Part shown: piece after piece, positions 3,860-61,900 of the stretch
Layout of the letters: the number at the start of each line of letters is the position of its first letter
Numbering within the stretch: position 1 is the first letter of the stretch
Source: Leptogorgia sarmentosa
Lineage: Eukaryota
Length of the DNA stretch: 64,000 nt
Reading direction: 5' to 3'
Assembly (NCBI GenBank): GCA_964658305.1
Contig: OZ210884.1
Location: 1,736,001-1,800,000, forward strand
The notes under the pieces: generated by a model
What the model saw: only the letters and a program-made list of their open reading frames with translations
What the model was told of the DNA's origin: nothing
Databases searched by the model: none
Program-made: the position numbers and the translations under genes

Positions 3860-4869
3860 CAGGGCCGTAGCTAGACATTTATAGTTGGGGGGGGGGGGGG
3901 GGTGTAGGCCAAAAATTTCCGAATGACAAAAAAATTTTCCGAATATTTCATGGCATACCGAAGCCACGAATGTGTTTACTATCCGGACGAAGCAATAAAT
4001 TATATAGATATTAATAAAAGCCGTTTTTTATTAGTCGCACCCAGAATACCAATCTATCATAATCAGAGAGGCCGCAGAAGCATTTAGATTGTGTAGTGGC
4101 ACTGTGGCATTGACGAAAGGGAAACTTTTGTATATGACCAAAATCAAATTTTATATGGCCCAGAAAACTGTAGCCCAGAAAAAAGGCCCTTTATAATTTT
4201 TACTTTAAAAAGGGGGGGGGGGGGGAGGCACATGCCCCTATTGCCCCAATGATGAAGTAAAAATGTAATAAGTTTCACAACAATGCCATAATGGCTATTG
4301 TTTATTGCGGCAGCAATTGTATATGTTCACTAACGTTTCCACGTAATGAAAACGCCATTCGTGCAGACATGACAAATGTCACAAATTTATTCTTCGGTTA
4401 GTTTTCATAAACCATTTATCAACTAGCATGTCTATGTCCAAACTGCCAGTAATATCTTTTTCGCTGGTTAAATGCTACAATTTACGTTATTATCCACACA
4501 GATAAAAATTACCAGATTCAAAGTTTCTAAGGGTTTTTTGAGAGAATTAAGTCAATTATTGACCAAATACAAACAATAAAAATAAAATACGCATATCTTA
4601 CGCATAGACATATTACAGAGGTAACAAACCGAAAAAGATCTACCGATTTACGATTTTTAAATTGTTTTCCATGTAAATGCCATGATTTCGTAAATCAGTT
4701 TATACTGACTCTTTCTGTAATATTTTCTCTGTTTAAAAATTAAGATTCCGTTATACCTTTATTTCCGTAATTTTCCGAATGGCCAACCCGATTTTCCGAA
4801 TATGTTAATTATAGAAAAGTTGGGGGGGTTAGCCACCCCCCAATACCCCCCCCCCTCGCTACGGCCCTG
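3860..4869. mobile_element. hAT-like MITE
   Basis: TIRs CAGGGCCGTAGC...GCTACGGCCCTG with an exact 8-bp TSD GTTATAAC (3852-3859, 4870-4877); inserted at the centre of a palindrome (3793-4937). Confidence 0.85.
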
Positions 4870-7800: not shown

Positions 7801-7975
7801 CTGCAAACTAACTACGTAAATATAATTATTGTACGTGGATTGCAAAATTATTGAAACAACTACGTATTAGTCCTACTAGAGACTAATCTTAAAGTGAGAC
7901 AAAATAAATGTTGATTGATTATACTGGCCTTTCAAAGGCGTTTCGTGCACATACTGTTTGAACCTATACTCTGTT

Positions 7976-25600: not shown

Positions 25601-26870
25601 CTTGCGATATCTGTCTTCAAAGCTGTTCTAATTAACGCTGCGGCACCTTGGTTCGGTTTATATTGTTCTTTAAAACACGGCCAAAACGAGTACGGCTATA
25701 TTCCGAAGTAGTAAGCTCTAATTTGGATGAAAGCGATCCAGCAACTTCTGCTGCGGCGTTCCCAAAACTTGTTCATACAAACTGGCTAAAGAATTACTCG
25801 TTAAAAAATTAAAAATTGCAAGTTTGAAATTGTTCGAAATTCTTTGTAATGCATTTTATAGGTTTTACCTTCCAATCAAACAGGTTATATTTTTTTGAGG
25901 GGGGAAAGGGGGGGAGGGCACACACGGTATACCAAATTAAGTTAGCCTTCTCTTAACATTATAAAACTTACCTGGATGCAAGAGCTGGTTTAATTCTTAC
26001 ATATTACATTGTATTAAATCAAACACCGATACTTCAGTTTTCGATACAACCGATATATTCATATGTCATAAAAACGCATGCACATGGTACATCAAATTTA
26101 GATAAATTAGATGTCAACCACAGTTACAGAGATAAAATTAAAACTATATACCTGCAAACTAACTACGTAAATATAATTATTGTACGTGGATTGCAAAATT
26201 ATTGAAACAACTAAGTATTAGTCCTACTAGAGACTAATCTTAAAGTGAGAGAAAATAAATGTTGATTGATTATACTGGCCTTTCAAAGGCGTTTCGTGCA
26301 CATACTGTTTGAACCTATACTCTGTTTTAACGAACAAAGATGTACCCCATAGCCTGCACTTCCTTGTCGCCATTGTCAGCATTACAAGAACTAAAAGCGC
26401 TGTTGCCGCAGCTGTTGACTATGTTCCTCCGGCTGCAGTATCTTCGTTGGCTGGCATCGATTGCACCAAATCCTATGAAGGAATCTGCTGTCCGACAATC
26501 TTTCTCATTATTTCCTATAATGCCGATTCGAACCCGTGCGTGATACTTGTCATCAGCAGCAACATTGAACCCTTGCCTTCCACAATATATTTGAAGTGAG
26601 GAATCGTCGTACAAAGATTTCCATGTGTTGCGAGGGATGTTAGTTGCGCGAAATTTTCCGTCTGCCAAGATATCGTACAAAGAATTTGCCTTGTAGCTTA
26701 TTGGAATAAACCGAACTGAATTAACTCTCATTCCAACACACATATGAGTAAACGGTGTGCTCCAGAAAGTTGCCAGTTTTGTTTCCACGTGATCCAGTCC
26801 GGTTTGCCCACCGCCTATTGAGTATTCTTTCTTATTGGTCCAATAAGAGGACGAATAAGAAAATGTCTCC
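22210..26870. repeat. Segmental duplication, copy 2
   Basis: Direct homology to about 1845-8521; for example, ORFs 7958-8248 and 26309-26599 translate identically. Confidence 0.9.
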
Positions 26871-29800
26871 TAAAATACAACAAAATGAACAGTGATAACA
26901 TTTAGAATTAAAGACGCAGTACTAGTAGTTATACAAATAACTACTCTGCGATTCGGACTTGGTTGGGAAAATACCCATGAAGGTTCAGCTAATTGCAATC
27001 GTCAAAAAATGTAATCTCTTTCTTTTACTTCGTACATGATAACCTAGACTTGCTTTGTGTTTCCAAAAAAATAATATCTAACAAAATGTTGCTGTAATGA
27101 CAACAGAAATTCTAAAAGATGCACTCTCGGGAAATTTGTATACACCGCACGAGTTATTTACTATAGCAGCTTAAATTTTTCCATTCTTAGACACATTAAC
27201 TTACCTTGCTTCCGTTTATTTTCATCACCATTGTCCACCCACCGCCTGAACATCCGGGTAATGATGTCATATGACAATACACTTCAGTGAAGTTTGTGGG
27301 TGTTTTAGCCTTGATACGATAGACGCCATTCTCGGCGTGACTGAGAAAATATAAATTTGGGGATCGTTGTTTTATACTCAGTTTGTTAATTGCCCGTATA
27401 ATTCTCATCCCTAGGGATAGCGCTACTTACGGCGGAGGCCCGAAATAGCCTTAGTATCGGTTGAGTATATATTTTATTAATACTAACAATATTATTATGC
27501 CTGATCTCTGTTAATTGTAAATGCACAAGCGTGTTGCAATGGACATTATAACAACTTCAAAAACGCGTAATTAGCAGCGAATTTGTTTCTGGCGATATTG
27601 TTGGGGAAGGAGAAGAAAACAATTTTTCTCCATGATTTTATCGGTAAAATGTCGCAGTATGTATTCAATTACGCCAGGGACTGGCAAGTACCAGATGAAT
27701 CTGTTCAAAACCTACCTAATACTTGCTCTTGTACAAATTCTGTTTCTATATTGGCCCCCTTCACAGAAATAGCCATGGGGCAATGCTTATTGTTTATACT
27801 GTAATGTGATAATTGTTCACTGCATTAAATTTTAATGTCTCGAGCTAAGTATCATAGAGGTAAGAAAGTATCGAATCGAAAGCATTTTAAAGTATCGAAT
27901 CGAAAGCATTTTTTGGTCACAAGCTTATTGTGTTTTACTAACAGGTTAGTAAATACTTGAGCTTCAGGGGCCGGGCACCACGAAAAATCTTGGATTTGAA
28001 AAAAAAACTATTAAAGCCGTGCCTTAGTCAACAATCTTTCATGTGTTTTTCCAAAGAAACCTACTAAAATGGTAGAGTTTGGATTCCGAAATGGTCATTT
28101 CCGGCGATCTAGAGATCCTAAATGTTAAAAATGTTATCGCTCGGCGCCAACCATGATGGCGTCCCGTGAGTTCCACCCCCCCCCCCCCCCCCCCCACATT
28201 GTTGAAAACATTCCTACGTCCAAGTGGTAATTTGTTCAAATTGTGCAAAAATTCAATTCAACTCGAACTCTTAAAGAAGTATCAACTAAATAGCAACAAT
28301 TTTTTGCAACACTTTGCAACAAACATTTTTTTAAATATTATTCAAATGAAATGTGGAAACACCGTAAATGTATTGCGTATGCAATGGAATCGCAATACAA
28401 CAGGAGTCAATTGTTTCAAATACATTGCGAACTTACAAATGGACATTCACTGGAACTTAGAGACTCAAAATTGTTTCCATAATCATTCGTATTTCAACAC
28501 TACACTTCACATTTTCTCAGTAAAAACATTTCAACATCGCCCTCATTTCTCGGCGGCCGCAGTCTTTGAATACGTCATTGCAAACAAAAGGTCATCGCTT
28601 GATTACAATTCAAGTAAGCTAATCGCAGATTGGCTAACAAAATTAAATTGATATAAGCTCATCGGTGAATGGCTATGTGCTAACACATTTTGCGGTGTAG
28701 TAAGGTACGGGACGCTTGAGATAGCAATATACCTGCTTTGAAGATATAAAAACAACAGCGAGGTATATTTACGTTTTAAACAGTGTAATTTTCAGGGATT
28801 ATTCTAACGAAATATTAAAACTTCAGTGGGCTCCAAAACTGTTTGCGTGTGTAGCTGTTGTGAATGCATTTTTTATTCATGAAAAATATTACAGAGCTCA
28901 CATAATGTTTCATGTAAGTGAGTAAGACCTTTACATTACATGCTGCGTTTCGCCAGTTCATGATATATACCCTAAAGTCTTATTGGAGAAGTCTAACCAG
29001 TGGTCGGAACCAAAAATTGAGGTGATAATAATTACATTTTTTTCACGAATATTGGAAACGTGGCAGCAGAAGTAAAAACTCGAATATACCAGTCATTGCG
29101 AAGTTCGTTCGTAGAAATATTTTTACAACTCCAAGAAGTGGCAGCGAATTATCACTCGTAATTTTTAAAGCTTTAAATCTTCATCTTTTTCATCTTGGAA
29201 TTTTACACATTGGAAATTATCAGTCATGCATGGTCGCTTGAAACATATAGCAAAATTAACGGCATTGTTTTCACGATTTCTTGTTATCACCTGTTGAGAG
29301 GTAAAAACTGGCGAACAAATTCTTCCGTTTCTAAACTGCGCCAGGATCAACAAATTTTATGAATCGATCGCCGGAAATGACCATTTCGGAGTCCAAACTG
29401 GACCTTTTTCGTTGGCTTCTTTTGGTATACAAATGTATGATTGTTGACTAAGGGCCGGCCCCCTGGAAACTTAAAATTGGGGGCCCCGTTGCTCCGCCCG
29501 TTTCCAACGTCCCTGCATGGTAATTCCAAAGAAAATTTCTGTTTCCCTATTTTGGCTTGCTATGGTACTGGTTTTGTATTGCTTTAAATACTGCACTCAG
29601 TTCATATTTTCAGGCACAATATTGGTGAGAATGACTACCCTACATCTGCTGTTGCCGGGCTTTGAGAACTAAAAGATATCAGAATTTTTCTTTTCCCGTT
29701 CTAGTTCAGAACTCGTAAATAAAATTCACCTGTTTTCCAATAAGGCTTGATGGCACGATTCGTATGTGGTATCATCTATATAACATAATACATGGTAGGA

Positions 29801-38710: not shown

Positions 38711-40302
38711 TGTTAAATATGTCTTTATTCTGCACGAGGAGGGAATCGTTACAATTGGTCTATAGTATTCCTACTGTTCGTAAAGATCTTCCGTTGTCTT
38801 CTTAGCGTTGTTTAGTCGGTTTCTTCGTTGAGTTCGTCTGTTTGAGTTTCGGTAGCCTTTTCATTTGATACGCTTTTACTTCGGTCTACGTCCACTGACT
38901 CAAGTTGGGATGGGGAGTTCCTTTTATACTAACGGTCGAGGGGATCGTTGTCCACGTGAACAGCCAGGTGGCACGATACTGAATCCACCAATCAGCGTTC
39001 ATGTGTTGTACTATGAACCCTCGTTCCAGCTCTCCAATTCTGTTTGTTTAGGGTGTTGTCGCACTTCTCAAGTCAGTTTTACGCTCATTCTACCGATACT
39101 TAGATAGGTTAAGACTAACCTACTTCTTTACTTATTAATAACAAAATATTTGACGTGCAACCTCTAGGCTTAGCTTTACGAGTTAACTTAATTTAGAAGA
39201 GAATTTAACGAACTGAGATTTTGGTGACGTATTATTGTAATTACTCAACCGCGCGAATTATCTTGAGGCGTGATTGATGGCAAAACCCAAAGCATACGCA
39301 CGTGTAAGTACAAAGTTTCTATTTACCCAATGTACACGGTCTGTTCAAACACATCTGGCTTTTTTCCTCACTTTTCGATCAAACTTTGACAGTATCCAAG
39401 ATTGTTTATCTTCATTGTTACGCAGGTGCATAATATTGCGTAAACATTAAAGACAAGTTCCGCAGGCAAACTAAACATTACGCACGTGGAGGAGCTGCAT
39501 GATGAGTGACATTCTTGCTTCAAAATCCAAATAAAGTAAATTATAAATTTTCGAACCTACGCAGAGTGTCAATCACGGTTCCAATTAGGCGGATAGAGAA
39601 GATAAACAATCTTGGATACTGTCAAAGTTTGATCGAAAAGTGAGGAAAAAAGCCAGATGTGTTTGAACAGGCCGTGTACATTGTGTAAATAGAAACTTTG
39701 TACTTACGCGTGCGTATGCTTTGGGTTTTGCCATCAATCACGCCTCAAGATAATTCGCGCGGTTGAGTAATTATAATAATACGTCACCAAAATCTCAGTT
39801 CGTTAAATTCTCTTCTAAATTCAGTTAACTCTTAAAGCTAAGCCTAGAGGTTGCACGTGAAATATTTTGCTATTAATAAGTAATGAAGTAGGTTAGTCTT
39901 AACCTATCTATAAGTATCGGTAGAATGAGCGTAAAACTGACTTGAGAAGTGCGACAACACCCTAAACAAACAGAATTGGAGAGCTGGAACGAGGGTTCAT
40001 AGTACAACACATGAACGCTGATTGGTGGATTCAGTATCTTGCCACCTGGCTGTTCACGTGGACTACGATCCCCTCGACCGTTAGTATAAAAGGAACTCTC
40101 CATCCCAACTTGAGTCAGTGGACGTAGACCGAAGTAAAAGCGTATCAAATGAAAAGGCTACCGAAACTCAAACAGACGAACTCAACGAAGAAACCGACTA
40201 AACAACGCTAAGAAGACGACGGAAGATCTTTACGAACAGTAGGAATACTATAGACCAATTGTAACGATTCCCTCCTCGTGCAGAATAAAGACATATTTAA
40301 CA
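38711..40302. mobile_element. 1.6 kb foldback element with ~700-bp TIRs, TGT...ACA ends and 4-bp TSD (Ginger-like / inverted-LTR-like, non-autonomous)
   Basis: 38711-39413 is the near-perfect reverse complement of 39598-40302, with a 184-bp spacer. TSD AAAG at 38707-38710 and 40303-40306. Confidence 0.88.
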
Positions 40303-40794
40303 AAAGGATAATATAGTTAATATTCGTGCTGAAAACAACTGTGAAGTGGAGGAAATTAATCACGCTGTTGCACGATGCTGCAGCACGTCATGACTGAGGT
40401 ATAACCTTTATCAAGGTCCAATATCCATTTGCCCAATTGGGTTCTGTTGAGGAAATAACTGCAGCCTGACTACGTGAATTTAGCGGGCTAGAAAAGTGAA
40501 TGCTGATACATCATCATCCGGTCACACATTTATATATGTATATAAACAACTGGCCATATTCACAATATATACATAATTATGTATAATTCTGCTTATGTGG
40601 TCACAACTGCTAGTATGCTTTGCGGTGAAACAATGTCTACCAATGACCAGAGCGCGCAAGTAACCATAAGTTCTATCGCTTAAAAATCAGTGAGCGATCG
40701 TGAATGGACTTATTTATTTCGAGCAGCCACGAACAAGTCGGTCGACTGTTTACTGCGAGAACTCGACACCACGCATAAAGATAAGAAAGATTTA

Positions 40795-43700
40795 ATGATG
40801 AAACTATACCCACCAGTAACTGATGACGGAAAACCTTCTATGAATGGCTATCAACAAGTTTGTTGCGGCGATAATGAATCCGCTGAACTAGAACTCCATC
40901 CTCCCGTTAAAGCTTTGATGAATGCAATTCTCACCGATCCAGGTAAGCAACAGCGCCGTAATTGCCGTTCATATTAAAGCTCTGTCAAATCAACTCATAT
41001 TAATGTAATATTTTGCAACAACATCATTCTGTGGATATAATTATTTTGCGCGATACTTCTCTCGTTAGGCAACAGCAATTGGCTGATTACAATGGCATGC
41101 ATGAATTTAGGATTTCATTATCAGTTGACAGGAAAGTATGACAAAAGTCGATCCTTTTGTAGAAACATTTTAAAACTAGGTATAGATGGGTTACTGGTTT
41201 ATAAAAAAATGAACAAAAATACTCGGAACTCGTCTTGTGCAAATGAAAGCTAATTTGTGCCAAATTGATTCTATATACCCATACTCTCAAGGAAAAAGCA
41301 TGTATATTGGTAAAAAAATATTGCCAATTGGTTTTACAGAACACAATTTGCTTATTGGCAATTGGTTTAAACCCAACGCAATCGGGAACACTGGCAGATT
41401 TGTACCGGTTTGCAAAGTTTAACTTATTTACTGTCCTCAATAACGAAAATGCTAGGCAATCCCAACTAAAATATATCTTGAAAGTAGTTCCTGTAAATAC
41501 GCAAATATAATAAAAATAATAATAAGTAATAAATACAAGTAGCCTTAATCATGCAAACTCGCTAAAAGTTTAAAACAATATGAACACATTAAAAAAAGAC
41601 AAGAACATGAACAAGTACAACAACAAAAGGCGAGTAAGATATGGGATAAGCATAAGGATTCGAGGTCCCAACGAGACAGATCACACTAATACACTTGCAT
41701 AACTATAACAGAAAATACGAAAATAAGAGAAGAATTAAACTCTACATCTGACTGAACAGGAACACTAACTTAATCATCAATGACTGTATCACTCCAAAAA
41801 CTCCTATGGTCATAGTATAGTCAATTTGGAATTCTAACTAACGTAATAATAAGTAAATCTTGATATAAATTTAAATCACAAGAAATCTCGAAAACGAAAA
41901 GAACAGATTGGTTCACTCAAAATTTACGCCAAAATATATAGCATGATATATCCCTAGTGGTTAAAATGAAAATTTAGTTCATGTCTTTTTTTGCAGAAAA
42001 ATTGTTTTAAAGTGTCCGTTTTAACGATAGTAGCTAGTTTAAGACGAAGGTTTTCTTTTCACGTAGCTATCTCGTGCTCAAAAATTAAATTCGTCGAATT
42101 ATAAATTTAGAATTTTGAGGTTTCTCAGTCGGCCGACTTACTTAAAAAGCTTTATAGATTCATAATTAATGATATAAAATCAAAATAAATAAATTTTGGA
42201 GAGTACGCCGAATAGAGAATTACGTTTTATTGTTGAAATCAAGGCTTCATTTATATCATTGCGCTGGTTATACAAACATTGATGCTCATGATTTTTATAT
42301 TCCTTTTAGTTTCTCAATATCCAGACATAGTTTCGAAGATAGCAAATAGTTTTGTCGAGACAATAATCATAGGATAATTTGATTTTGATCGGGACGCCAA
42401 AAATATTTCGGGTTTTTAATACATTTCGTCGAAAATACACGACATAGAAAAAATTATCCTCTTAATAAAAATGTTTCTATCGAAATACACCAATTATATA
42501 AGGTAGAGTTGACTCTATCTATACCAATAAATAATTATGTGCTCTTGCCCATTTATAATCCAACACCGTATCAATACGTTATTCATTGATACTCATTTTA
42601 ACAACCTTTTTTGCTGTAGACGGAAAACAGCATTTCCTTTATGTACCATTAAAAAAACGCAGACAATAAAATGAGCGATTTGCTTTTCAACCTGGTTATA
42701 GTTTGGACAAAATATTGTGACTTTAAGATATTCGAAAGATATATAAGATTAAATCGTTCAATGCATGTCTATTGATAGTCTACACAGTATTGCACGTCTA
42801 TATGTAGTGTTCCGCTACCACTTAAGTTGTTGAAAAAGCTCTTGGAAACTCTTAACCGCAATGAATTTGTCTAGTCAAAACGAAGTGAGCTTAAGATTGA
42901 TGCACAAAGCCGCCTTTATTTGTCTTTTGTATATGCGTGGGCAACTGTACTCAAAACGATGCAGCGATACAAAGATCGACCCAGGAACTGGAACCTGGAA
43001 CCGGAGCTGGAATCGCTCATAATTCTTGAAAATTATCGCACTAAGCTTAATCCCTTATGAAAAATACACATATAAAAACCCACATGTGAAACACATGTGG
43101 TTCACATGTGGTATTGGAACAATCACATGTGATTCACATATGATTCACATATGATTCACATATGATTCACATATTATTCACATGTGATTCACATGTGCTT
43201 CACATGTGCTTCACATATGGGTTTTTACATGTGTTTCAGTTCACATGTGAATCACATATGATTGTTCCATTTCCACATGTGAACCACATGTGAACCACAT
43301 GTGAATCACATGTGAAACACATGTGTATTTTTCATAAGGGATAACCGTATCGCAAATCAGTGATATGAATTTCCAATGGGAAAGGGGGGGGGAGGAGACA
43401 GAGGCATATTAATTGTCGTAACAAACTAAAATTGTTTCTGTCACCAAAATAGAAAAATGCGCAGCGTGTTTTATTCAACACACTATAATATAAAATATAT
43501 GCACGACCGGGCAAAGAAGAATCTCTATGGTATGATCAATTCTCTTTTATACAATACATTCCGGTCGTTTATTTGTTCAATTATTTTCACGTTATATGGA
43601 AGAGAAAGTTTACACCGTTTAAATAGATAATTAGAAAATTTCACCTTTCATCTCATGAACATTTTCTTACCATTGCACTCATAAACATTTTTAATAGTGA

Positions 43701-46407
43701 TATTTAGCTATAGACTAGCTTTGCTTAAATTCAGACAGCACCCTTAATCACCAGCAATATAGTTTGAAATTATTCCACCAGTTTCGTGGAAGTGAGGATT
43801 TAATTCGCCTTACTCACTCTTTGAGGCCAGTCCCAAGTGTTACGAAGATTTTTTCAACTGAAAGATAAAATGTTTTGCTTTTCAATATCTGATTCACGAG
43901 AACTTTATTCATTAATACGGATAAATGCAATAGACAACCAAAACTTATAATGTAAATATTCAATAATTCAAAAGAATTCAATAATAATTTTGAATATTCC
44001 TAGTTCATTCAAAATGGCTCGTTTAGGGCAAAGTCAATTGGCGTTGGAAATTGTAAATGTATATGTTTGCATTTTTATCGTTGTTAGAGCTCAATATGTA
44101 TTTCCATCTAATGTTCTGGCAACAGAAGGAACTCCCAGAGATTGAACAAGGAGCCAAAATTTGGTCTTGGCAAACTATGATTCTTCTAATCAACATGATT
44201 ATTGACAGAGCTCCCCAGTTTGGCAAAATTGGATTAGCGCCAACTCCGATCGCCGAAATTTTCAATTGGCCAATGGCTACCGCTGCTGGGTTCGCAGTAT
44301 TCTCTAATGAAAAGGTGAGAAATTTTAAATTGGTTGAGGCTGATTTTGCAATATACATTATACGTTATACGTTATACATTAAACGTAATACATTATACAT
44401 TTTATTATTTCAAATAAGTTTAGAGTGGGTAAACTCGTCACATCTGCTTGGTAAAATACATAATATGACACAATTATGTCGTATATTGAAAATTAATATG
44501 TGACATTATGACGTCGACTAATTATGCGGCTTATGTTAAAAGCGGCGAGAAATAGATGTTCTCGTTTATACATTATACATTATACATTATACATTATACA
44601 TTATACATTATACATTATACATTATACATTATACATTATACATTATACATTATACATTATACATTATACATTATACATTATACATTATACATTATACATT
44701 ATACATTATACATTATACATTATACATTATACATTATACATTTTACATTATACATTATACATTATACATTATACATTATACATTATACATTATACATTAT
44801 ACATTATACATTATACATTATACATTATACATTATACATTATACATTATACATTATACATTATACATTATACATTATACATTATACATTATACATTATAC
44901 ATTATACATTATACATTATACATTATACATTATACATTATACATTATACATTATACATTATACATTATACATTATACATTATACATTATACATTATACAT
45001 TATACATTATACATTATACATTATACGTTATTATAACTTTTATAGGCCATCATAAGTTTTTATATTTATTGTTATTATTTTCTGTTAAGGTCAACAAACT
45101 ATTCAAAGATATTTTAAATTACTGGGGAACATTTCTACAAAGTGAGGAATCCGTGTATGTGTTAAATGATGATGCTCGTAAAGGATGGTTTGGGAAAGAC
45201 GCTATGGAAACCATGCCAAATTTCGTTGAAGAATTTGAATGCGATCCATCAGCACCTCACTACGGATTCAATTCGTGGGATGATTTCTTCGGGCGAAAAT
45301 TCCGCGAAGGAGTGCGTCCAGTTGAAGATCCTGATGATGATAGTGTTGTTGCAAATGCCTGCGAGTCAGCGCCCTATAGGCTGGCGTACAATGTGAAGAA
45401 TCAAGATATATTCTGGATCAAGAAATGTCCATACTCTTTGGGTAGGAGAAATATTTATATTGTACTAGTGTTGTCAATAATTTTAGAGTATTTCGACCAA
45501 CCTCGACATGTAGCACACAGTGGCGTAACGCAACCTCTGGGGGCCCTCCGACAGTCGACCACTTCGGGGCCCCCTTTGTTCCACTAATTAATAGGCTGAA
45601 TTTACCACTTATGTCTAAACAACGGCAAACCTCAGTTTGTTACAGAATAGACTCGATCCCGAATTTGAATTTAATGAATTTCGCTTCTCTCTTCCAAACC
45701 TGCCTATCGGTCTGTTTTTCGTATTTGAATTCCCCAGAAATGTGCTATCAATTTTTTATGTTCATCTTGTCGGGGGCCCCTAAAGTTCGGATTGGACACC
45801 CTGACACACCTCCGTTACGCCACTGGTAGCACAATTGAGTCTCAAACCTCAATTGAGTCTGAAACCAAAAATTCATTTAGATCACATGCTCAACAACGAT
45901 AAACTGGCAGAGAGATTCTGTGGTGGAACAGTTTACCAAGGCTTCCTAAGCCCGACCAGTTATCATCGATGGCACTGCCCAGTCTCAGGAACTATATTGA
46001 AAACTGATTTGGTTGATGGTTCGTATTATTCCCGACCCTACGACATTCAAACTGGTCTCTCCTCAATCCACGAATCTCAGGCCTACCTATGTCAGGTTGC
46101 CGCCCGAGGTATTGTATACATCCAAGCTGATAATCCTGATATTGGTTTGATGGCCTTCGTCTCGGTTGGCATGCTAGAAGTATCCAGCAATGAGGTTACA
46201 GTCAAATCTGGCGATCGCGTTAAAAAAGGAGACGAGATTGGTATGTTTCATTTTGGCGGTTCAAGCCATTGCCTCGTGTTCCAGCCTGGAGTGAAACTTC
46301 AATTTGATTTGCGTGGTCAAACACCCGGCACGCACCACAAAGAGTTGTTCGACATTCCAGTCCGGTCAAAAGTTGCGGTCGTAGCGAAACAAAAAAAATT
46401 GCGATAA
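40795..46407 (+). CDS. PsiD-like pyruvoyl-dependent decarboxylase (phosphatidylserine decarboxylase family with fungal/bacterial-type N-terminal domain; 'L-tryptophan decarboxylase-like')
   Basis: Exons <=40795-40942 (...LHPPVKALMNAILTDP), 44088-44314 (ELNMYFHLMF...WPMATAAGFAVFSNEK), 45090-45441 (VNKLFKDILNYWGTFL...GFNSWDDFFGRKFREGVRP...ANACESAP...), 45881-46407 (GGTVYQGFLSPTSYHRWHCPVSG...GMLEVSS...KKGDEIGMFHFGGSSH). GT-AG introns in phase; 417 aa from ATG 40795. The true start is uncertain (see findings). Confidence 0.88.
43052..43340. mobile_element. MITE with CCC...GGG termini, 2-bp TSD and dense CACATGTG/CACATATG subterminal repeats (animal EnSpm/CACTA-like)
   Basis: CCCTTATGAAAAATACACAT...ATGTGTATTTTTCATAAGGG flanked by AT on both sides; the interior is tandem 11-mers GATTCACATAT/GAACCACATGT. 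Confidence 0.75.
44566..45026. repeat. (TTATACA)n heptamer tandem array, about 65 units, in intron 2 of the decarboxylase gene
   Basis: Near-perfect array with one visible variant near 44743; a shorter degenerate array lies at about 44353-44400. Confidence 0.97.
45518..45825. mobile_element. hAT-like MITE
   Basis: TIRs CAGTGGCGTAACG...CGTTACGCCACTG; exact 8-bp TSD GTAGCACA (45510-45517, 45826-45833). Confidence 0.88.
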
Positions 46408-49948: not shown

Positions 49949-52900
49949 TCAATTCCACCATTTCAAAGTGATGTTTATATGTTTTACGCATTGTGCGGCC
50001 GTTATTCGATTTTCTGGCTCAGTTTCCCAGCAATTCTTCATGAGGGCATCGAATTGAGATATTACACGTTGGCAACCTTTTATATGTTGTGGCCTCAGAC
50101 CATCCATAATTCTGCTCATCAATAACTTCCCGTCAGGGAACTCACTGAAGATTCTTTGCCCATACCATAATTCCCACAACACCAGACCGAAGCTGTAAAT
50201 ATCTGCGCTAGTCATATAACGTTTCGATGCAGTATATACCTCGGGAGCCATGTAGAGTGGTGTGCCGGCAACAGTTCCTGTGATATCCTTCTCGTCTTTT
50301 GCAATACCAACATCAGCAATTTTCAAAGATTTGCGATCTAAGCCAACCTTGAATAAATTAAAGTTGTTAGGTTAGTTAGATTGGAATTTTTGTTAGGAAA
50401 CTAAATGTAAGTAAATGGTAGTGAGATTTAAAAATGGGAACAAGGGATGGAAGGGTTGTCAGAGTTGGAAAACTCAACTTATTTCCAGCCAGGGGAATGT
50501 AAATGAAATTTTTAAAGCGACGAAAAACACCGTGATAACGACTCGATCAGTTCGATCATTTGTATGTCGACATTTCAAATTGCTAACCCTAAATTAAAAT
50601 GAACTTGTAATGCAATAGAACACGAAAAGGAGAATATACCTCGGGATCGGACAGCAGAACACTTGGAGGATTGGACCCCTCACACATATTTGTTAAATTA
50701 TATTTTTCGGGGCATCATTACATCATTACAGCATTACCGCAATTTCACATCCACTTTAGATGTAATTTGTCTTACATATTTAAATAACAAAACAAATACG
50801 GATGACGGATAACAAAATGTCAACGGTCAACATGGGTACATATAAAAATTAACACGAATTTAACACAAATTAGATATAGTGCCGTTACTCTACATATTTA
50901 TTATACACAAGCACTGTCCACTGCACTGCAGTTTTATAGTTTGTCTCTATTTAATCATAATTATGATGCTCTGTAAACGTTGTTCCCACGCGATTTCTTC
51001 ATTGCAAAATTGTTGATCAGCCATGAAACTGAAAGGCTTCGCAGCAGTTTCGCTTCAATGCTTAGACGTACCAGACTGTTCAGACTTTCTGTCCAATTGA
51101 AGATCGAATGTTATTCTTGATCAGTTTAAGTTTAGAAAACGACCTTCGAAATCATGAAACTTAAATAAATACGTAGTACGATGCAGTGGCGAAGCCACCC
51201 CGACTTCTGGTCATGAAAATGCAAATTTTTCTGTATTTATAGACCGTAATATAAGGAATCAATTTCTAAAGAAATGAATAACATAATGATTTAAATTTGC
51301 ATTTGCATGTTCAAATGTCGGGCTGGCTTCGCCATTGCTAAGATGACAATTTTTGGAAACACTGTCTCCAGATTATTCGCAACGATTAAGCGGTAAAGGC
51401 GCGTCTCGATCGATTCAACGCACAGTAAATCATTGTCGTCATGATCATCTTTTGTGATCACGCAAATTTTGTGATCAAGCAAACCACGGAGGCCCAAATT
51501 GATGCGCAAACGGAGCTAGGGCCCCAAATTAAATTGTTATGCGAAAGGACGAATCGATAAACGCAGGGGGCAAATACGCAAATCTCGAAGGGCCCCAAAT
51601 GTGAACCACAAACCACAATGGGCGAATCATTTTCCAGAAAAGGGCGTGGCCTATCGAAGAGCGGGGCCACTGTAAGCGCGGGGCCCGAGGCATATGCCGC
51701 ATCTTCCACGTGGTCCAATTACACGTCTTCCCCTGCATGTTTTAGTGTGTAATTGAGCCCGCAGCTATGTTTTCCAGCAACGTTAACAAGATGCATGCGT
51801 GATTATGAGATATAGAATGCGGGCAGTTATTAATCTCGTAATAAAATTATCTCGCAATAAAATTGCCGATTCAAATTTTATTTAATTAAAATGAAGAAAA
51901 TTATCGATCAACTGAAATTACGATAATCCGCAACCCCAGATTGAAAATACTCTAGCACGCGCACGTGCGAAATTTAGAACGATTTCCATTCGTTGGGTAA
52001 CAAAACTTGCTGTATTTTAAGAAACTTAATTTTGAGATATTCAGCTGTGTGCATTACACGTACAATATCTGCTATAGTAGTTTGTGTTTGCAATGTAAAT
52101 ATACCGTTGGCAAGGGCGCAAATGAGCTATAGAACTGTCCATGGCAATCAGTGGGGACATAGAAATAGAATACAAATTAATAAACATTACAACTAGTTCT
52201 TACCAAAATATTATCCGGCTTTAAATCCCTGTGAACAAGTCCTTTTCCGTGTAGGTACTCCAAACCACAGGCAATATCTTTTGCCCATTTCAACATCTGA
52301 GAGACGGCATTGTGGCGTGTGTCTTGCGAAGCTCGGCCTGGTAAAGTATCCTGGTATTTTTCAAGATACATTCGCAAACTCTCATCACAAAGCTCCATGA
52401 CCAAGATGAACTTCCTTCCACCAGACTCCTCTTGCAATACTGATCCGTAAAACTTCACCACGTTTTCGTGATTAATGGATCTATAGAAAATGTTATAAAA
52501 TTGAACCTTGAGGATAATGAAATTCAAGATTCCACTTGTTATTATTTCCACTACAGGGTGTGGAGAAAAAGCGGTAATCAAACTTTGGCATGTCATTATG
52601 CGGTAATAAATTTGTATATGCACGTATACTAATTTCTGCATAGTCATGAATGCAGATGCATGTATTACTCTACTTCACTTCGGTGTTGTTGAGCACTCTG
52701 TGCGCGGAGATAGTGGGTGTACATTCGCACTACTGCAAAGCTCGCGTCCCTTGTGGTCGTTTGAGTGCTCTGGCACCATGACTCTCTGCGCATGTGTGGA
52801 TGCGTGATGCGTCGATGTATTGGTGTGTACCACTGGCACCATACAATGTATGCATTCCTCCCATTTTTGGTAATAAATTTTGTCTGAATTATATTTATCC

Positions 52901-55900
52901 TTCAAAACACAACGCCTCAACTCCTAATATTAACTAGAAGATCTTTTTTGTTCCTGCGTAAACGAACAAATATATTGTTTTATCCAGGGGCGGCGGAACA
53001 TATTCTATTTTGGGGGGGCTAAATTTAAAAATGTTTATCGTAGTTTTTGTCTAGGTGGAAACACAAACGGCATAGCGTGTAGTCACTGTAGTGATGTCTC
53101 CTGCTTTGAAAAATTGTTCAAAATCTACAAAAATACGGATACCAGGATATGCAATTGTGCATAGTGCATACTGTAGAGTGTAGATCATTTGATAATCTCA
53201 TGACTCAGTGTCTCGCATTCTGACATTCTTTATGTATTTTTGGGGGGGCTAAGCCCCCCCACTTTTACTTCTGGGGGGGCTTTTAGCCCCCTAGCCCCCC
53301 CTGTTCCGCCGCCACTGGTTTTATCGTTGACCAAGTTATTTTGAAATCTCGTTTAAGTTCATGAGTATATGTTATTGCAATGTGGCTCAGTTGCTATTCT
53401 CAATTATGCGTGTGTTAATTGTATCTGAAAATTATAGACCAGTTGACATTGTTCATGTATAGTTATGAAGAAAAGCTTTGTGTTTCGAAGGATAAAACCA
53501 AAATTTACCTAACATGGGACGATTTCGTGCGCATACTATACATAGATTTCTTCTAGTTGTATGTAATTATGACAAAGTCTGGAAGAGAAGTTAATGGAGA
53601 GGTTAAGATATCCCGATTTACGCAAACGGGTGCGGGTAGCGTTATTTTGTCAGTGAGATTTGCATCAATATCTTTGTAGCTATTTAAATTTAATCCCTGT
53701 ATTGTTCTTTCGTAAAAGACCATAAGCTGATGCAACAAGCAGAAAAGTTTGGAGCAAATATGTAAATACCGCAGAAAATTTCACTGACAAAATAATGCTA
53801 CACGTACCCGTTTGCGGGAATTGGGATATCTTAACCTCTCAGACATCGAAATTAACAACCTCGTACCCAGGGTCTTATGATCTCCGCTCCCGCTGCTCTC
53901 CCGCTACGACAAAGACCCTGGTACAGGCTGGTCACGTGACACCTTAATTAGTTTCATCCCGTGGGGGGAGGGATGTGCAACGTGAAATTTTTGTTTGCCC
54001 ATTTCAAGCGTGGACTGTGGCCGCCATTTGTGATGTGCGTGCCGTGAATATTTGATCAAAGCTTTCCCAGATGCGAAAAGGTTGTGAATGCCAGGTTTTT
54101 TACACTTGTTTGCACTTCGCTATCATCAACAGCTTATATTACGATCTAGTGTTGATGTAGTGTTGTTTCACCGTGCTTTTATACAACACAATAATATGAT
54201 TTTCATTTCGTAGTCAAGACACTACGGTGAAAAGTATACTCCAGGGATGTGTAAATAATTTGTCTCATTGTTAAAGACAGGTTACAGTCGCTTCTGCGCG
54301 TCGGTTCTGCTCATAACAAATGTGGACCACATTGTCCAAATTTCGCATTTTTTGAAACTTTTTTGAATCGAAACGCTGGTTTATATTGTTTTAGGAGCAT
54401 AGCAAACCCGAAAAGTGTCAAATATTCAGTAGTTCAATCAAATTTTACAAATATAGCAACTCAAAATGAAAACAAAGCGTTTGTTTACATTAGTCTGTAA
54501 CCCCCTTAGCAATATACGAAAACAAGCATTCATCCGTAGTCCGTAGCAGTAGTCCGTTGTGAAGATCTTAAATTCCCTATTGTCCATGTGAACAGGTCAC
54601 TGGGCAAAGGCGAGCCGCGAATGCAACTGTTTGGCTTTATTTACATGACTTGCGAAATGCGATAGACTTACCCACCCCTCCCTCAGTATTCAATTGAAAA
54701 CACCCCAGATTCTGGGGTGTCACGTGACCAGCCTGTACCAGGCTCTTTGTCGTAGCGGGAGAGCAGCGTGAGCGGAGATCATAAGACCCTGGGTACGAGG
54801 TTGCGAAATTAATACCACGAGCACCGCAATTTTATTCTTCAGGAAAAATCAATGGGGGAAACGGGGGGGGGGGGGGGGGCGCAATTGATACTAAGAACAT
54901 TGGCAAAAAAAGAATAATTATTCCCGTACCCTAACTTCATCTCTTGAGACATCAAGTCGTGGGCATTCTTTTCAGTGAGCATGTCTTTACAGATTTTTAC
55001 AGCAACATCCAAATGCTCGCCCTCGGCTGTTTTCAGACTTCCCTTGAAAACATCTGCAAACGTACCACTGCCAATTGCACAGCTGCCCCATCGTAAATCG
55101 GCTTTCTTTATGTCCTTTGGAATGATTTTCTCGATTGTGAACAATGAAAGTTCTCCCCTAACATTTTCACAATCGGCATTAACAGGTGCATATTTTTCTG
55201 CTAATGCGGACAAGTATGCACTTTCATATATTATGTAAGTGATTAAATCAGCATCCGCATTGATCAGATTCGTAAAATTCGATTTCATTTCCTCCAAGTT
55301 AAGTTGTACCATATCAAACTTTGGCGTGATGAATGATTGCAGGCTTTCTTTACTTCTGTGATTGTTCAAAAATTTTCTTGATTCATCAGAAACGTAGGAT
55401 TTTTTATCTGTTTTGAATGTCTTTTTGGCGATGTTCTTAATACCAAAATCAACAACAGCTTTTCCAGCCACGATTGGGAGACAAAGAACACCCCCAATAA
55501 TTGCAATAGGAAACCAAAGAGGACTTGTTACACCGATTACGACTTTAGAAAGGGTGCTTAAAAATAGATTGGGAATGGATGAAGGGTTGACCATTATTTC
55601 TTCGACTTCTTTGATTTGAAATGCCAGAGAATCGCTATTACTTTTGATTTTTTCCATCATCGAATCGTGTGCGGATGTTATCACGTGGTTTTTCGCCTCC
55701 CAATCATTAATTTCTTTACCAAATCTGTTACAAATGGCTTCCCGCACTTTCGCTTCCACTTCGGGAGTTAACTCTTCTTCCGGAAAGTCATCATCGATAC
55801 CGCTCCAGGTACAAAATTTCTCTTCGAAACCTGGTTTTGTTAAATACACATGAAGAGATTCGGCAGCGTTGTCTATTTTAGATTTAAGTTCATATTCTAG

Positions 55901-58900
55901 TTCTTTTATGCACTTTTTATATGTTTGTTTAACAACTTCCAGTCTCGTTTTTGCCATTAACAGGTTCAGGAATACGTTATCCTTCTTGTTCTTACTATCG
56001 AGAACAGTAACAATGAAATGAATTCTAGAAACAAGATCGGAAAGCCACCTACATAAAAATGGTTCAGGTTAGCAGATATTTTAGAAACCAATGCTAGTGA
56101 GGTATATTGAAAATGACAACAATGAAAATGAAATTCAATTATGCAATGTACTCGAAACTGATGCTCTTTTTCTTCACCATTATATTATTTAGGCCCAAAG
56201 AGTGCTCGATATCATATAGGTAGAGAATATAGTATAAGACCTGACGATTTCTCTTCGATGAAACAGGGTGTAGTGGCACCTTTTTGAGACTCGTTACTTT
56301 GGGCCTTTTCAGCCAAAATACATTAACAAAGTACTCACCAATGTACGCAAAGAGCGACAGATTAACAAATCTAAAGAAGAACCTGAACAGCCAAAGAGGA
56401 CAATAACTTTACCTTACATAAACAGAAATCTGAAATGACCGCCAGACTACTCCGACCATTTAATATTAACGTAGCACACAAGCCAACACATAAAGCAGGT
56501 CACGTTTAAAAAAAGCAGACAAAACAACGACAATTGAGACAAACAATGCCACAGTCGGACGAGCACAGACAAGACATGCATCTGAATTCAAAGAGGGATG
56601 GTACAGCACAGACGGTAATACGAAAAATCGACAAATTGACATTCCTACAATCTACATACAACTTACGACAACACGTACTGTTGGAGCTCTACTAATACGT
56701 TAATACGACTAATACTTCAATGCAAACTTCCCTGAGTCTGAATTCGATAAACAACAATCCAGTCATTCCAATAAAACCACCCATGACAACAAAGTTCAAT
56801 CAACCATGACAACGCATCCTTCAACCACCAATAATATCAGTTCAACCTCCAAACGGCCACGGTCAGACGCTCTCGACGTATACAGGACCAACAGCTCGAA
56901 TCTCAAATATAATACGTACATTTGTAAATGATTCAAATATTTGCTGAAGAAGGTTCGGACTAACGAGTCGAAAGGTCAATCCAGAGAACTTGCGTCAGTA
57001 TTAATATGCCTGGAGTACAAATCTTGATGGGTAAGTTCTAAGTTTCAGGGTTAAACGATAAAAGTTTGTTTTGTTATAATATTTGGATATGGTGTATTTA
57101 ATACTTTAGGATTTTATGTGTCTGTTTACACCAGCGACTTTTGCTGCGATTATTTTTACTGACGTGATTCCTAAATGAAATCGCCGATGCACCCCACGAT
57201 TAAAGTTTATTTTTTCAATAAAATGAGTTTCGAGATTGTATCGAAAAGGTGCCACATTCAGAATTTTTTTTTGAACATTTGGGTGTTTTCAGGGAACAAT
57301 TTCACTTCAACGAGGTGATATTTTTTTGGTCTTGCTCGAAATTTTTCTCGCAAAAGTCATTTCTGAAAAGAAACTTTAAGAAGAGCGACTAAGCTGATAA
57401 AACTGAAAAAGTAACATGGATAAAGAACGAACAACGAAGACATTTATTAAAGCGATGGTACCATACTCAATATCGTCGTCTCTCATAGCTTTTTAGATTT
57501 AGCATACTTTCATAATCATAAAAGTTTCAATCCTATCCGGAAAATATGCGGGCAAACATATTTTAAAGAAATTATACATGTTGTAAGTAACCAGAAACTG
57601 TGCTGTCTTGCAGCTAGACGATATCGACGTGGGACATGACTATGTTTCGGACCTTCGGTCATATTATTACACACATTCTATGCTTACTTACGCGTGCGCA
57701 CTTACTCTACTATATTTGTTTAATAAATAGTATTGGTAACGTTAGGGAATACTATTGTGATTGCGTGATCAGAAAGGGGAAAATTATGGACATTTAGGGT
57801 TCGCAACCCCACCCCCCATACCAACTATGTGCTAGTGACGGCGCTGGGTGTCTGTATTTTTTTAACAAAAAATTCCAATGCAGAAATTCCTTACCTACAT
57901 TCTTTCTTCAGTCTTGCCTTTATCGTTTTGAACAGCATCGATTTAACTGAATTGACAACCACTCGGAACTGTGGACTGATCATACCATAGTCTTGCCATA
58001 TACTTGCTTCGGTGGTGGAAAGTTTAACAACTTGAGACTGACAATCCACGCCCACCCAATATTCCTCCAACTTCTTTTTAATATGACCTTCAACGTTTTC
58101 ACGTTTTGTGTCAACGCAATCCCATTTATTGCAGACAAATACGGCAGCTTCTGGGATGAATTTTTTCGCAGATTCTCGAAGCACATCTGTAGCATTTCCC
58201 GAATCGGAGGTTTCTGCTGATTTTTTAGGCTCATTTTCTGATGTGAAGCCTGCCGTCAACTTTGGAAACAGAACGGAATTTTTAGGAAATTTTTGAGGCA
58301 GACCTTCAATATCCCCTGACGTGAAGCTCGTCGAAAACGGTTTAAGCACATCACTGGAATCCTCCGAGACGAAGTTTTCAGCAGTTTTTTTAGACATCCT
58401 TTCCGAGATTAAGCCTTCTGAAGCTTTTTTCAACAGATCTCCGAGCTATAATGAAAATATCATTGCTAACTCAGAAATTTTTTTGACTATCCTGCACCCC
58501 TCACATTTACTTGATATAAAATTGTCAATGGTAAAAATGTCGACATGTTTAGATATATCAAGCCAATAGCGACAAATTATCTTAGAAATCGTCGATTCAA
58601 TCCGGGTAGAATTATTTCCGACACCAAGGAATGATGGTTTGTCAATGGTAATTATTGTTCAATTGCAATGCTTGTCGAGGATAGACATGATTTGGGCGGT
58701 ATAAAAAAGCAAGAATAAAACAACTATAATTAAAGCTGCTTTTCTGAAATGTTATAAAATGAAACAAACTGCGAATATCATCATCTTGTAACTCAAGATT
58801 TGAGTCATTTAGAATAACAAGACACAAAATTCGGGTATACCATTTCTACTTTATTTCAAAGTCATTGTCAAACCAACTAATATTTGCATAGATCTTTAAA

Positions 58901-61900
58901 GGTGGGTTACAGTCCCTTCTGCGCATGTGCACTGAGTTTGTTATGAGTAGACTACTCATGTTACAATCACAGCAAGTTCCTAGTCCTACAGAGTAATAAC
59001 AACACCCGCGGCCGCCTAAATGTTTTCACTGTCGTCGGCTACAAGGAGCTATGGCTGATTCAGGCGCGCCAAGTTCCGTAAACCTTCAAAAACTAAGCGT
59101 CGTTGCAGATCTGACACTAGAAAGGTATACGACAAGAAAAGAGACACATCTAATTTATTTTTATTCGATGCTTTCGAAAGGTGGAGAGCGTTCAAACAAG
59201 AAAGCAACCTGAAGACTGACCAGAATGTGGCAGATTTTCTGCTCGATCATTACGCACGCAGAAACACGTTATGGTGAGTGTGTTGATAATAATTATAACT
59301 AAACCTTTGACCTTTAATGATGATTTTACGCTTTAATGTACTTCCCTTTACATATTTTATATGTTTTAGAAAACTCAAACGGTGGGGTCAACAACAATGT
59401 GACCTTTGTCTTCACAAGAACAATCAACCCCTATTTGTAATTCATATATTTTCCCCGAGCCAAGGTGCGAAGCGCCGTCAAGGCTTTAGCCCGGGGCGAA
59501 GGTAATAATTCCGCACGGCTATTTGCACCCGGGTAATGGGCAGCATAGCGGAGTCCAAAGTTGCTCGATTTGGCCGCCCGATTTTGGGTCATCGTCGAAG
59601 GGTGGTCAAGATGATCTGAAAAGCACTGGTATGGTTAAATTTAGCATGCTCGGCTAGCCTCGTGTGTAAATTCCGAATTGTTTTGCCTATATAAGTTGTC
59701 GAAAAACCCGGACAGGAAAATTAGTATACTACATCACTCCGCTCTAAGGTAGTCTAATTTCGTCAGTCTCACGTGAAATACTCTTTAACAATGAAAAACA
59801 AGAAAAGGGGAACTTTGAATATATGATATATATATATATATACGATAAAGTTTTGGTTAACGAAATGCCGAAAGAGTGCTCGATACCATATAGGTAGAGC
59901 AAATAGTATAGTTTTGCCTCAAAAAGGTGCCACTACAGCCTGTTTCATCCAAGAGGAATCATCAGAGCCATCTGATGATCCCTCTTGGATGAAACAGGCT
60001 GTAGTGGCACCTTTTTGAGGCAAAACTATATATATATCTACTCTCAACTTTCAATGAAAACCCCATCTCCGGTATAATAACATTTAGTCTGAGTCCTAAT
60101 TTTTGATCCGGAGGCTGAAGACGCTTTGAATGAAAGTTTAATTTCGTACATAATTATGTAAATGGAAGCGTGCGTCTATATGAAACCTCTACATTCTTTT
60201 TCAATTTTTGTCCTGGAACACATGCAGTAGCATCTATAGTTTAGCTATTAGTGGGATGTCCGAAAAAGATTACAAGCAGGACAGCTTATAATAATGCTGA
60301 ATTTGCAATAGTCAAAGGTTGAGTGTACACTAAAAAATAGTTACATTGTTAGCAAGACAAAAAACTTACCCGGTCTCGAGCAACACCTCCGGCATTGTTA
60401 CTATTTATCACATATATAAAAAAGAACGCCTTGTTAAGATACTCTGCTACAATTTTGTCCAATTCCGGATTTTCTCCAACTCCCGGGCTGTCAACAATAA
60501 TCAATCCATCCTAACGAGTGAAATGGAAAGGAGGTAGTCAGCAAGCAGAAGAAAATCAGGCATTCATCGATTTCAGATAATATTAGATGAATTCGAACTT
60601 CTGTATATCGCTGGAAAGTTTGTTTTGGATTTTCGGAAGTATATTGAACACTTTTAAATCGTATTATTTCTTGACTATTCGCATTAAAATGGATTTTGCA
60701 ATAAAAAATGGCATTGAAGCAATCGTTGAAGTCTGTATTTTTAACTGTTGCAATTTTAAAATGCATCACTTTCGACTCGAAGGCCAAAACCGTAATTGAC
60801 ACATTGGTTCTTTTGTAAGCAATCAGAAAAAACTTAGCTATCGCTAACGAATCGCTATGAAGCTGGGATATATACTCCAATTGAGAGGGTAAAACCCCAA
60901 ATCGACTGGACGCAGCATTACACAGTAATTTTCTGATAACTTTCTAGTTTCAGAGCTTTAGATTAGACGGTAACAGACGTAAAAGCATTACTATGTTTTC
61001 AGGTCAACAATGAGGTTTGTTTGTTCTTAGCTTTTTCCGATTCCAGTTGATATACCAGACCTTTCTTATAAGTCTGGCTGGAAAATACTAAATTCCCGCG
61101 AATTTTGTGTTCGTCACTTTTATTGATTTGGGTAAAGGAATATTTTTTTTCACTACCGGCGGTCCTCTCAGAAAGATGTCGCAAAATTCGATAAATACAA
61201 TCACTAAAACAAAGAAACACACTTGCCTTCAGTAATTCATTCGACCAAAATATTTCAATCTTTTTGATCATCAAACCATCATGACGGTGATTTGGAATGT
61301 CCAGATACGGTAATAATTGGTCAGTGTAGCTTTTTCCTTCATTTGGCTCCAAAAAATTATATTCTTCCGATTTTCTCTTTGCGTCATTGTAGTGAATTTT
61401 GAATTTCTTCGAACTTCCATATCGCACTTCGCAGATCGTGGAGGTTAATGGTAATTGTGCGTATGGTAAGATCTCTTCGCCCAAAAATAGGTTAATCAAG
61501 CTGCTTTTTCCTGAAGAAGTCTCACCTACACGAAAAGGAGTTAATTAACTATGACAAACAAACAGTCATTATGTGAATGTGGTTATAAGGAGAAAATGCT
61601 TGAGTGGCTATATCTAAATAACGGATATTATTATATGCACAAGCGCTGTACTGATTGGTTCTCTACTAGCAGGATAATAGCTCATATCCTGCTAGTACAG
61701 AAATGTAAACAAAATGGCTGAAAGAGCGAAGCCGGAATTGAAGTTTTCAACAGTAAAAACGTCTTTGCATCTTGTTAAAATTGATATTCGCTACCTGCAA
61801 ATAGTATTACGTATTCGTTTTGCAGCAGTTGTTCTGTCTTTTTTTCAATTTCATTCATCACGATGGACCCGGCACCACGATCCAAGATGCTAAGTAGTAC

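Follow-up and report, generated by a model that had tools for sequence, protein, structure and literature searches.

A PsiD-type decarboxylase gene with a remodelled predicted substrate pocket in the octocoral Leptogorgia sarmentosa

Two members of the PsiD-type decarboxylase family, both fungal, have been characterised. PsiD from Psilocybe cubensis (PDB 8X4Q, 8X4S, 8ZIA), a tryptophan decarboxylase, requires His296 and Ser403 for cleavage at its GG↓S site and for activity, and its pyruvoyl group makes a Schiff base with the substrate (PMC11929908). Ao-ADC1 from Aspergillus oryzae (PDB 9JER, 9JF5, 9JFN) applies the same mechanism to arginine, free of pyridoxal 5'-phosphate (PLP), and is reported to lack phosphatidylserine decarboxylase (PSD) activity (PMC12904898). 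Canonical PSDs, such as the LGST-type Psd of E. coli, share the PF02666 catalytic fold and the pyruvoyl chemistry. In animals, three 'PSD' genes of the sponge Amphimedon queenslandica, spanning 1293-1299 nt and with Desulfovibrio as top match, have been listed as putative transfers and interpreted as lipid enzymes (Conaco et al., 2016, PMC4784904). They very likely belong to the same family; the Amphimedon protein P0324 recovered here has 432 amino acids, i.e., 1299 nt with the stop codon. Here, a gene of this family is described from the octocoral Leptogorgia sarmentosa, at 40795-46407 on the plus strand of a 64,000-nucleotide stretch (the window; assembly GCA_964658305.1, contig OZ210884.1, positions 1,736,001 to 1,800,000). 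The reading that best explains its sequence, to which about an even chance is given, is that of a neofunctionalised pyruvoyl amino-acid decarboxylase with a remodelled pocket.

The gene consists of four exons, which after splicing give an open frame of 417 codons without stop or frameshift. Its parts are the following.

40795-40942, plus strand: exon 1 as delimited in an earlier note on this DNA, ending after DP with a phase 1 donor, GTAAGC
40943-44087, plus strand: intron 1, 3145 nt, GT-AG, with a dispersed repeat and an element resembling a miniature inverted-repeat transposable element (MITE) inside
44088-44314, plus strand: exon 2, PF12588 helical domain (Pfam)
44237-44257, plus strand: pocket loop 1, APTPIAE replacing consensus VGFPINV (PsiD 112-118; alignment)
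44315-45089, plus strand: intron 2, 775 nt, GT-AG, phase 0, with a 7-nt microsatellite inside
45090-45441, plus strand: exon 3, in which PF12588 ends and PF02666 begins (WDDFF, ANACESAP; Pfam)
45442-45880, plus strand: intron 3, 439 nt, GT-AG, phase 1
45881-46407, plus strand: exon 4, PF02666 catalytic domain through the stop codon (Pfam)
45964-45966, plus strand: His271, aligned with PsiD His296, which is required for PsiD self-cleavage
46066-46074, plus strand: pocket loop 3, IHE replacing consensus PN(M/E) (PsiD 338-340; alignment, register less sure)
46255-46266, plus strand: predicted self-cleavage site GG↓SS (motif and alignment)
46261-46263, plus strand: Ser370, aligned with PsiD Ser403, predicted pyruvoyl precursor

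The earlier note, made from the letters alone, had recognised a PsiD-type enzyme interrupted by three spliceosomal introns, and in both respects it was right. All introns have canonical splice sites, and the motifs it named are found at residues 110 (WPMAT), 213 (ANACESAP), 257 (GGTVYQGFLS), 269 (SYHRWH.PV.G) and 365 (FHFGGSSH) of the spliced protein. It overlooked what is considered here as the main feature, namely a remodelled pocket within a multigene family.

To map this pocket, the 13 pocket-lining residues of PsiD (PMC11929908) were placed on an alignment of 509 sequences, in which unnamed proteins are called 'cnidarian-like' or 'sponge-like' on the basis of tree position alone. The window copy departs from the cnidarian consensus at 7 of the 13 positions (V>A, F>T, N>A, A>P, P>I, N>H, S>L), which is the joint maximum with P0025 from the soft coral Dendronephthya gigantea; of the other conserved columns, it is changed at 56 of 270 (p=0.011, Fisher test). 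Both pocket asparagines (PsiD 117 and 339), invariant in all 74 GTDB bacterial copies compared among the loci listed, are lost. The consensus pocket is unchanged in 61 of these 74 copies. Most of the sponge-like and of the fungal rows share it, as do 52 of the 81 cnidarian-like rows. Three or more pocket changes occur in 20 of the 81 cnidarian-like rows, spread over several separate branches. What is new, as read from these alignments, is the repeated rebuilding of the pocket among coral paralogues, of which the window copy would be an extreme case, together with a probable late gain of introns.

The window copy is identical to PsiD at 5 of the 13 pocket positions, all five of which are family-wide; Phe289, Leu290, Met373, Phe398 and a probable Trp27-like residue are shared. 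None of the eight indole-pocket residues is identical: PsiD Leu112, Pro114, Tyr117, Val292, Tyr338, Leu339 and Thr374 correspond to A, T, A, P, I, H and L in the window copy, and Ile376 corresponds to V. The changes in the window copy fall at positions that are also changed in PsiD, to other residues, and its pocket is therefore neither consensus-like nor PsiD-like. With two Asn and a Phe removed and Leu, Ile, Pro and His added, our reading is that the site would be roomier, less polar and suited to a bulky aromatic side chain. Judged from these residues, it is probable that the substrate differs from that of the consensus-pocket copies; that it is aromatic, i.e., Trp, Tyr or a halogenated or hydroxylated form, can be proposed only tentatively.

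Several points speak against this reading of the pocket. The pocket map was made by hand from HMMER alignments, with loop 3 gapped and its register the least sure, and the Fisher test was chosen with the changes already known. Furthermore, the window copy has Ala at the position of PsiD Tyr117, and the PsiD mutant Y117A has lowered activity (PMC11929908); it also has Ala at Leu112, where the mutant L112A has raised activity (PMC11929908). Finally, the pocket changes, a long branch (0.28 for the window copy, 0.08 for its metagenomic relative L089) and the absence of an in-frame ATG also fit relaxed selection.

The outcome for the tryptamine step proposed in the earlier note follows from the same comparison: the step finds no specific support, given a family that includes the arginine decarboxylase Ao-ADC1 (PMC12904898; PDB 9JER), a match to PsiD at family-wide pocket positions only, and a window in which no methyltransferase, halogenase or P450 domains were detected by Pfam among stop-free stretches of at least 62 amino acids. 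That the gene encodes a true tryptophan decarboxylase feeding host-made tryptamine alkaloids, a subset of the preferred reading, is considered unlikely. It is true that PsiD itself arose by changes at the same pocket positions, that bufotenine has been reported in a gorgonian (PMC11055458, citing Penez 2011) and that the window copy shares the GGSS motif of PsiD. However, this motif, called unique to PsiD (PMC6121855), is shared by 37 of the 495 motif-bearing sequences and thus not diagnostic. A non-consensus loop 1 accompanies it in 30 of the 37 GGSS sequences versus 96 of 456 GGST sequences, which are not phylogenetically independent; in the remaining 7 of 37, GGSS is found with the consensus loop. 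Moreover, none of the seven variable pocket positions matches PsiD, with Ala instead of Tyr117. Tyr is present at this position in eight cnidarian-like copies (P0023, P0025, P0027, P0042, P0047, P0070, P0078, P0110), which on their sequences would be better tryptophan-decarboxylase candidates than the window copy. Several coral homologues are named 'L-tryptophan decarboxylase-like' by NCBI, but this name carries no substrate information, because consensus-pocket copies bear it too.

A basic or polar substrate (Arg, Lys, Orn or His, for polyamine, histamine or pH roles), as in Ao-ADC1, is quite unlikely. Ao-ADC1 has a consensus-type loop 1 (LIGFPFN) and Asp at PsiD 293 and 339, a mark that is our reading of the alignment and not a published signature; the window copy is of the same family, with the same fold and self-cleavage chemistry predicted, and has neither the loop nor the two Asp. 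On the other hand, the window copy has a new Glu at PsiD 118 and a Glu at 340, and 4 of 67 bacterial neighbours among the loci listed point to amino-acid metabolism. The bacterial neighbourhoods are not conserved: no conserved operon was found around the copies at the 80 loci listed, and the largest shared neighbour family occurs at 6 of these 80. Individual neighbours are an Orn/Lys/Arg decarboxylase (locus L030), an arginine/agmatine deiminase-type domain (L045), a pyruvoyl histidine decarboxylase (L062) and an amino-acid permease (L069).

That the protein belongs to the PsiD-type family and is distinct from the LGST-type PSDs, as the earlier note had assigned it, is borne out by several searches. 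PF12588 matches exons 2 and 3 (E 4.8e-13, 8.7e-12) and PF02666 matches exons 3 and 4 (E 1.3e-4, 3.3e-28), all above the curated cut-offs, which gives the N-terminal helical domain joined to the catalytic domain that is the layout of PsiD and Ao-ADC1. Among PDB entries, exon 4 matches PsiD (E 4.5e-31) and Ao-ADC1 (E 4.9e-20) best. For comparison of the fold, the Dendronephthya relative P0025 stood in for the window protein; its predicted model (mean predicted local distance difference test score 87.8) matches PsiD (E 6e-29) and Ao-ADC1 (2e-23) much more strongly than E. coli PSD (7e-12), the TM-score to the canonical PSD being approximately 0.4. A PSD serving membrane lipid synthesis, as assumed by Pfam, by many database names and for the sponge copies (PMC4784904), is highly improbable: the window protein carries PF12588, an LGST motif was not found in its 417 amino acids, and it scores far below every cut-off of the NCBIfam PSD equivalogs. 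Moreover, both characterised members of the family act on free amino acids.

The equivalents of PsiD His296, Leu290, Met373, Phe398, Gly402 and Ser403 are all kept in the window copy, including the cleavage motif (FHFGGSSH) and the catalytic His (SYHRWH), and the chemistry of PsiD and Ao-ADC1 is predicted for it on this ground. By analogy, the enzyme would self-cleave at GG↓S through His-assisted serinolysis, with Ser370 becoming the pyruvoyl group. This group would then form a Schiff base with the amine of a free amino acid and CO2 would be lost, without PLP. The altered pocket would admit a substrate other than the ancestral one of the family, most likely a bulky aromatic amino acid. That the substrate is a soluble one is, by the same analogy, very probable. 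A hydrophobic N-terminal stretch resembling a signal peptide in 30 of 75 bacterial copies among the loci listed hints weakly at an enzyme that is soluble and in some cases exported.

The window gene is no one-off: soft and stony corals have several copies of the family, and it is also present in a sponge and a crinoid. A search with exon 4 returned 2090 proteins at E<=1e-10 among 2508 candidates, the top named matches being Dendronephthya (four proteins), Porites, Montipora, Acropora, Oculina and the crinoid Anneissia, with bacteria next. A profile run against 1.84 billion representatives retrieved 692 clusters at E<=1e-30, and in GTDB at least 582 relatives were found, of which 80 loci, spread over many phyla, were kept. 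The sponge member, Amphimedon P0324, came from a later search, and fungal copies are many. No paper on cnidarian members or their pockets was found, most subscription journals lying outside the coverage of the search, and no biochemical characterisation of the Dendronephthya or stony-coral proteins was found in the searchable literature. The word 'phosphatidylserine' does not occur in the main text of a paper on transfers into corals (PMC4878875).

In a tree of 66 rows (5 of 71 rows were omitted as long or unplaced), the window protein groups with the Dendronephthya gigantea copies (P0002, P0003, P0025, i.e., XP_028390667, and P0047; support 100/99), inside a cnidarian-like clade (100/100). 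To these copies and stony-coral homologues, with which it shares an N-terminal insert, it is 61-64% identical over the alignment. P0025 and P0047 resemble it in having altered pockets and GGSS, although the individual pocket residues differ. L089, a coral-type metagenome locus, is 77% identical to the window protein. In a full-length tree, the window copy stands with P0025/P0047 (98/90), and in a tree of exons 3 and 4 it is sister to L089 (71/73), with an approximately unbiased (AU) test giving p=0.42 for the P0025/P0047 grouping. The window copy may accordingly share one pocket-change event with P0025/P0047 or have diverged on its own from a consensus copy such as L089. The position within the cnidarian-like clade, which points to an octocoral as the likely host, supports, together with introns, animal repeats and orthologues in related animals, the animal host and the domestication that the earlier note had proposed. 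The window gene is a real animal gene of a known enzyme family and, as far as its sequence indicates, likely a functional one.

Some members of the family stand out. The crinoid protein P0004 (XP_033109829.1), on a 2.3-Mb contig of Anneissia, nests among stony-coral sequences (99/95) and may reflect animal-to-animal transfer or contamination. P0001, a fungal (Tephrocybe) protein of 890 amino acids, comprises two complete tandem copies of the enzyme. L089 has Ser at the position of the essential PsiD Leu290.

With regard to the origin of the family, a bacterial transfer has already been published as an idea for the sponge copies, and both the naming of the family by databases and the flagging of the transfer in a sponge (PMC4784904) precede this work. 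The horizontal origin suggested in the earlier note is favoured, as an old event, by the best trees, which nest the gene in bacteria; vertical descent is not statistically rejected, a grouping of animals with fungi surviving the AU tests. We consider it moderately probable that early animals acquired an intronless gene from bacteria, which was then duplicated and gained introns in the octocoral line. Such a transfer would be old, common to corals and probably to sponges. In the best trees, animals and fungi are separated by bacteria (99/97 in the 66-row tree, 95 in a second tree), and in none of 200 bootstrap trees do the bacteria form one side of a branch. Identity of the window protein reaches 55% with bacterial copies and at most 49% with fungal ones, and the animal clade as a whole lies far from the fungal copies, PsiD included. 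The spacer after the GxW motif measures 73-97 residues in cnidarian-like copies (7 of 14 measurable) and 48-59 in sponge-like ones (13 of 15), versus 39-44 for bacterial (21 of 29) and 41-42 for fungal copies (3 of 13); the longer animal spacers fit one animal origin. The animals form a single clade with weak support (74/66).

Of ten coral-type metagenome loci, nine align over the entire coding region uninterrupted by introns, on contigs of 2-9 kb whose flanks are mostly of lower GC and contain no long open reading frame. The tenth, L089, has an acceptor at the position of intron 2 of the window gene and lacks intron 3. As the stony-coral copies are intronless, the Amphimedon genes are of single-exon size and L089 is without intron 3, the introns were likely gained in the octocoral line. 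The Amphimedon protein P0324 also differs from the window copy in its consensus pocket.

Vertical inheritance from an opisthokont or earlier eukaryotic ancestor, with loss in most animals, is somewhat unlikely, as the separation of animals from fungi by bacteria, the higher identity to bacterial copies and the intronless coral copies argue against it. It is nevertheless favoured by several points that weigh against a bacterial origin. The AU test does not reject animals with fungi (p=0.085 under LG+G4 with 66 rows; p=0.21 under LG+C20 with 41 rows), and fungi have many copies. The bacteria sampled were those resembling the animal and fungal queries, which biases the sample to close matches; the trees are unrooted and unicellular relatives of animals lie outside the sampling. 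In these trees, L065 from Victivallis (Lentisphaerota) forms a long branch either basal to the animal clade or within it, which may be a long-branch artefact, a donor lineage or a back-transfer.

The animal or symbiont origin of amines and indole alkaloids in corals and sponges is usually judged from genes for PLP-dependent aromatic amino-acid decarboxylases (AADC). For Amphimedon, the host was concluded to be unable to make tryptamine and other trace amines, AADC being absent (PMC10570526); neither PsiD nor phosphatidylserine is mentioned in the main text of that paper. The PsiD-type family would be a second, PLP-free route outside such surveys. The furthest-reaching version of the preferred reading holds that corals and sponges possess ancient, bacterially derived PLP-independent decarboxylases, that duplicates repeatedly rebuilt the pocket that PsiD rebuilt, and that the octocoral copy lets the animal itself produce aromatic amines, of the tryptamine type or others. 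On present sequences this version is fairly unlikely, but if true, it would give the host a route to trace amines and indole alkaloids missed by surveys of PLP-dependent AADC genes. The consensus and remodelled paralogues would furthermore be a natural series for learning how substrate choice on a single scaffold shifts among Arg, Trp and others. Should all copies act on the same ordinary substrate, the result would add modestly to the known old transfers into early animals.

The 5' end of the gene probably lies upstream of the start proposed in the earlier note, the Met at 40795 being probably internal. The extension is the following.

40690-40794, plus strand: coding sequence that probably extends exon 1 in the 5' direction, in frame and without ATG (homology in register)

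The frame is open from 40684, and coral homologues align upstream of 40795 in tblastn. A profile built from 17 homologues places LLRELD at 40750 among the best 0.02% of 89,838 stop-free windows; the segment 40705-40749, in the expected register, ranks in the top 1.4% of 54,166. Neighbouring frames score -17 to -27, far below the main frame. The Trp at 40705 is in register with the GxW motif of the family, which aligns to PsiD Trp27, described as a self-inhibiting plug (PMC11929908). No in-frame ATG was found between 40684 and 40795. The AG at 40689-40690, followed by TG (acceptor cag, then TG), could complete an ATG split by an intron after its A; donors ending in A occur upstream of 40690 and are compatible with this. 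Other options are that translation may start at a GTG at 40690 or at 40795. A frameshift reading with ATG 40704 as the true start was rejected, since that frame scores -24 versus +0.3 for the main frame.

The absence of an upstream ATG, despite homology that extends further 5', is one of the points in favour of a decaying duplicate, with a drifted pocket and a lost start codon. The long branch and the existence of a broken coral-type copy, L086, whose frame ends at 294 amino acids, point in the same direction. Such decay is distinctly improbable, as 417 codons are intact, the splice sites are canonical, all catalytic residues are kept and 197 of 232 highly conserved columns are retained. Versus L089, the ratio of nonsynonymous to synonymous divergence (dN/dS) is 0.135/1.136 = 0.12 over 291 codons, a pairwise value with a dS of 1.14 near saturation, which lessens its weight. 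In addition, a start at 40795 would remain viable, because PsiD without its first 50 residues is more active (PMC11929908).

Nearby methyltransferase or halogenase genes, for which the earlier note recommended a search, were not detected: a Pfam scan of 202 of 205 stop-free stretches of at least 62 amino acids in the 64-kb window found no methyltransferase, halogenase or cytochrome P450 domain, three microsatellite frames being omitted and exons shorter than 62 amino acids lying outside the scan. By the same scan, the gene is not clustered with methyltransferase, P450 or kinase tailoring genes in the manner of the psi cluster of PsiD. Next to it lie a dynamin-N/protein-kinase gene and duplicated genes for which Pfam gave no match.

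49949-61544, minus strand: gene whose exons encode a dynamin-N and a Ser/Thr/Tyr kinase domain
1899-8527 and 22271-26875: segmental duplication, 87-91% identical, carrying a membrane-tail exon (plus strand) and a 180-amino-acid exon (minus strand) without Pfam match

MITEs had been claimed inside the introns. This applies to introns 1 and 3; intron 2 contains a 7-nt microsatellite instead.

42039-42468: dispersed repeat in intron 1, with copies at 32867 and 62064
43050-43342, no strand assigned: MITE-like element in intron 1, with 22-nt perfect terminal inverted repeats and internal 11-nt repeats
44566-45031: 7-nt microsatellite in intron 2
45518-45825, no strand assigned: 308-nt MITE in intron 3, with 13-nt terminal inverted repeats and an 8-nt target-site duplication, which we take to be of hAT-type size
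38711-39413 and 39598-40302: two inverted 705-nt copies, 97.9% identical, separated by a 184-nt spacer

The inverted copies end approximately 390 nt before the gene, and each has a TATA-like box, an AATAAA and a terminal CA; they are presumably similar to long terminal repeats. They could affect the promoter or the first exon of the decarboxylase gene.

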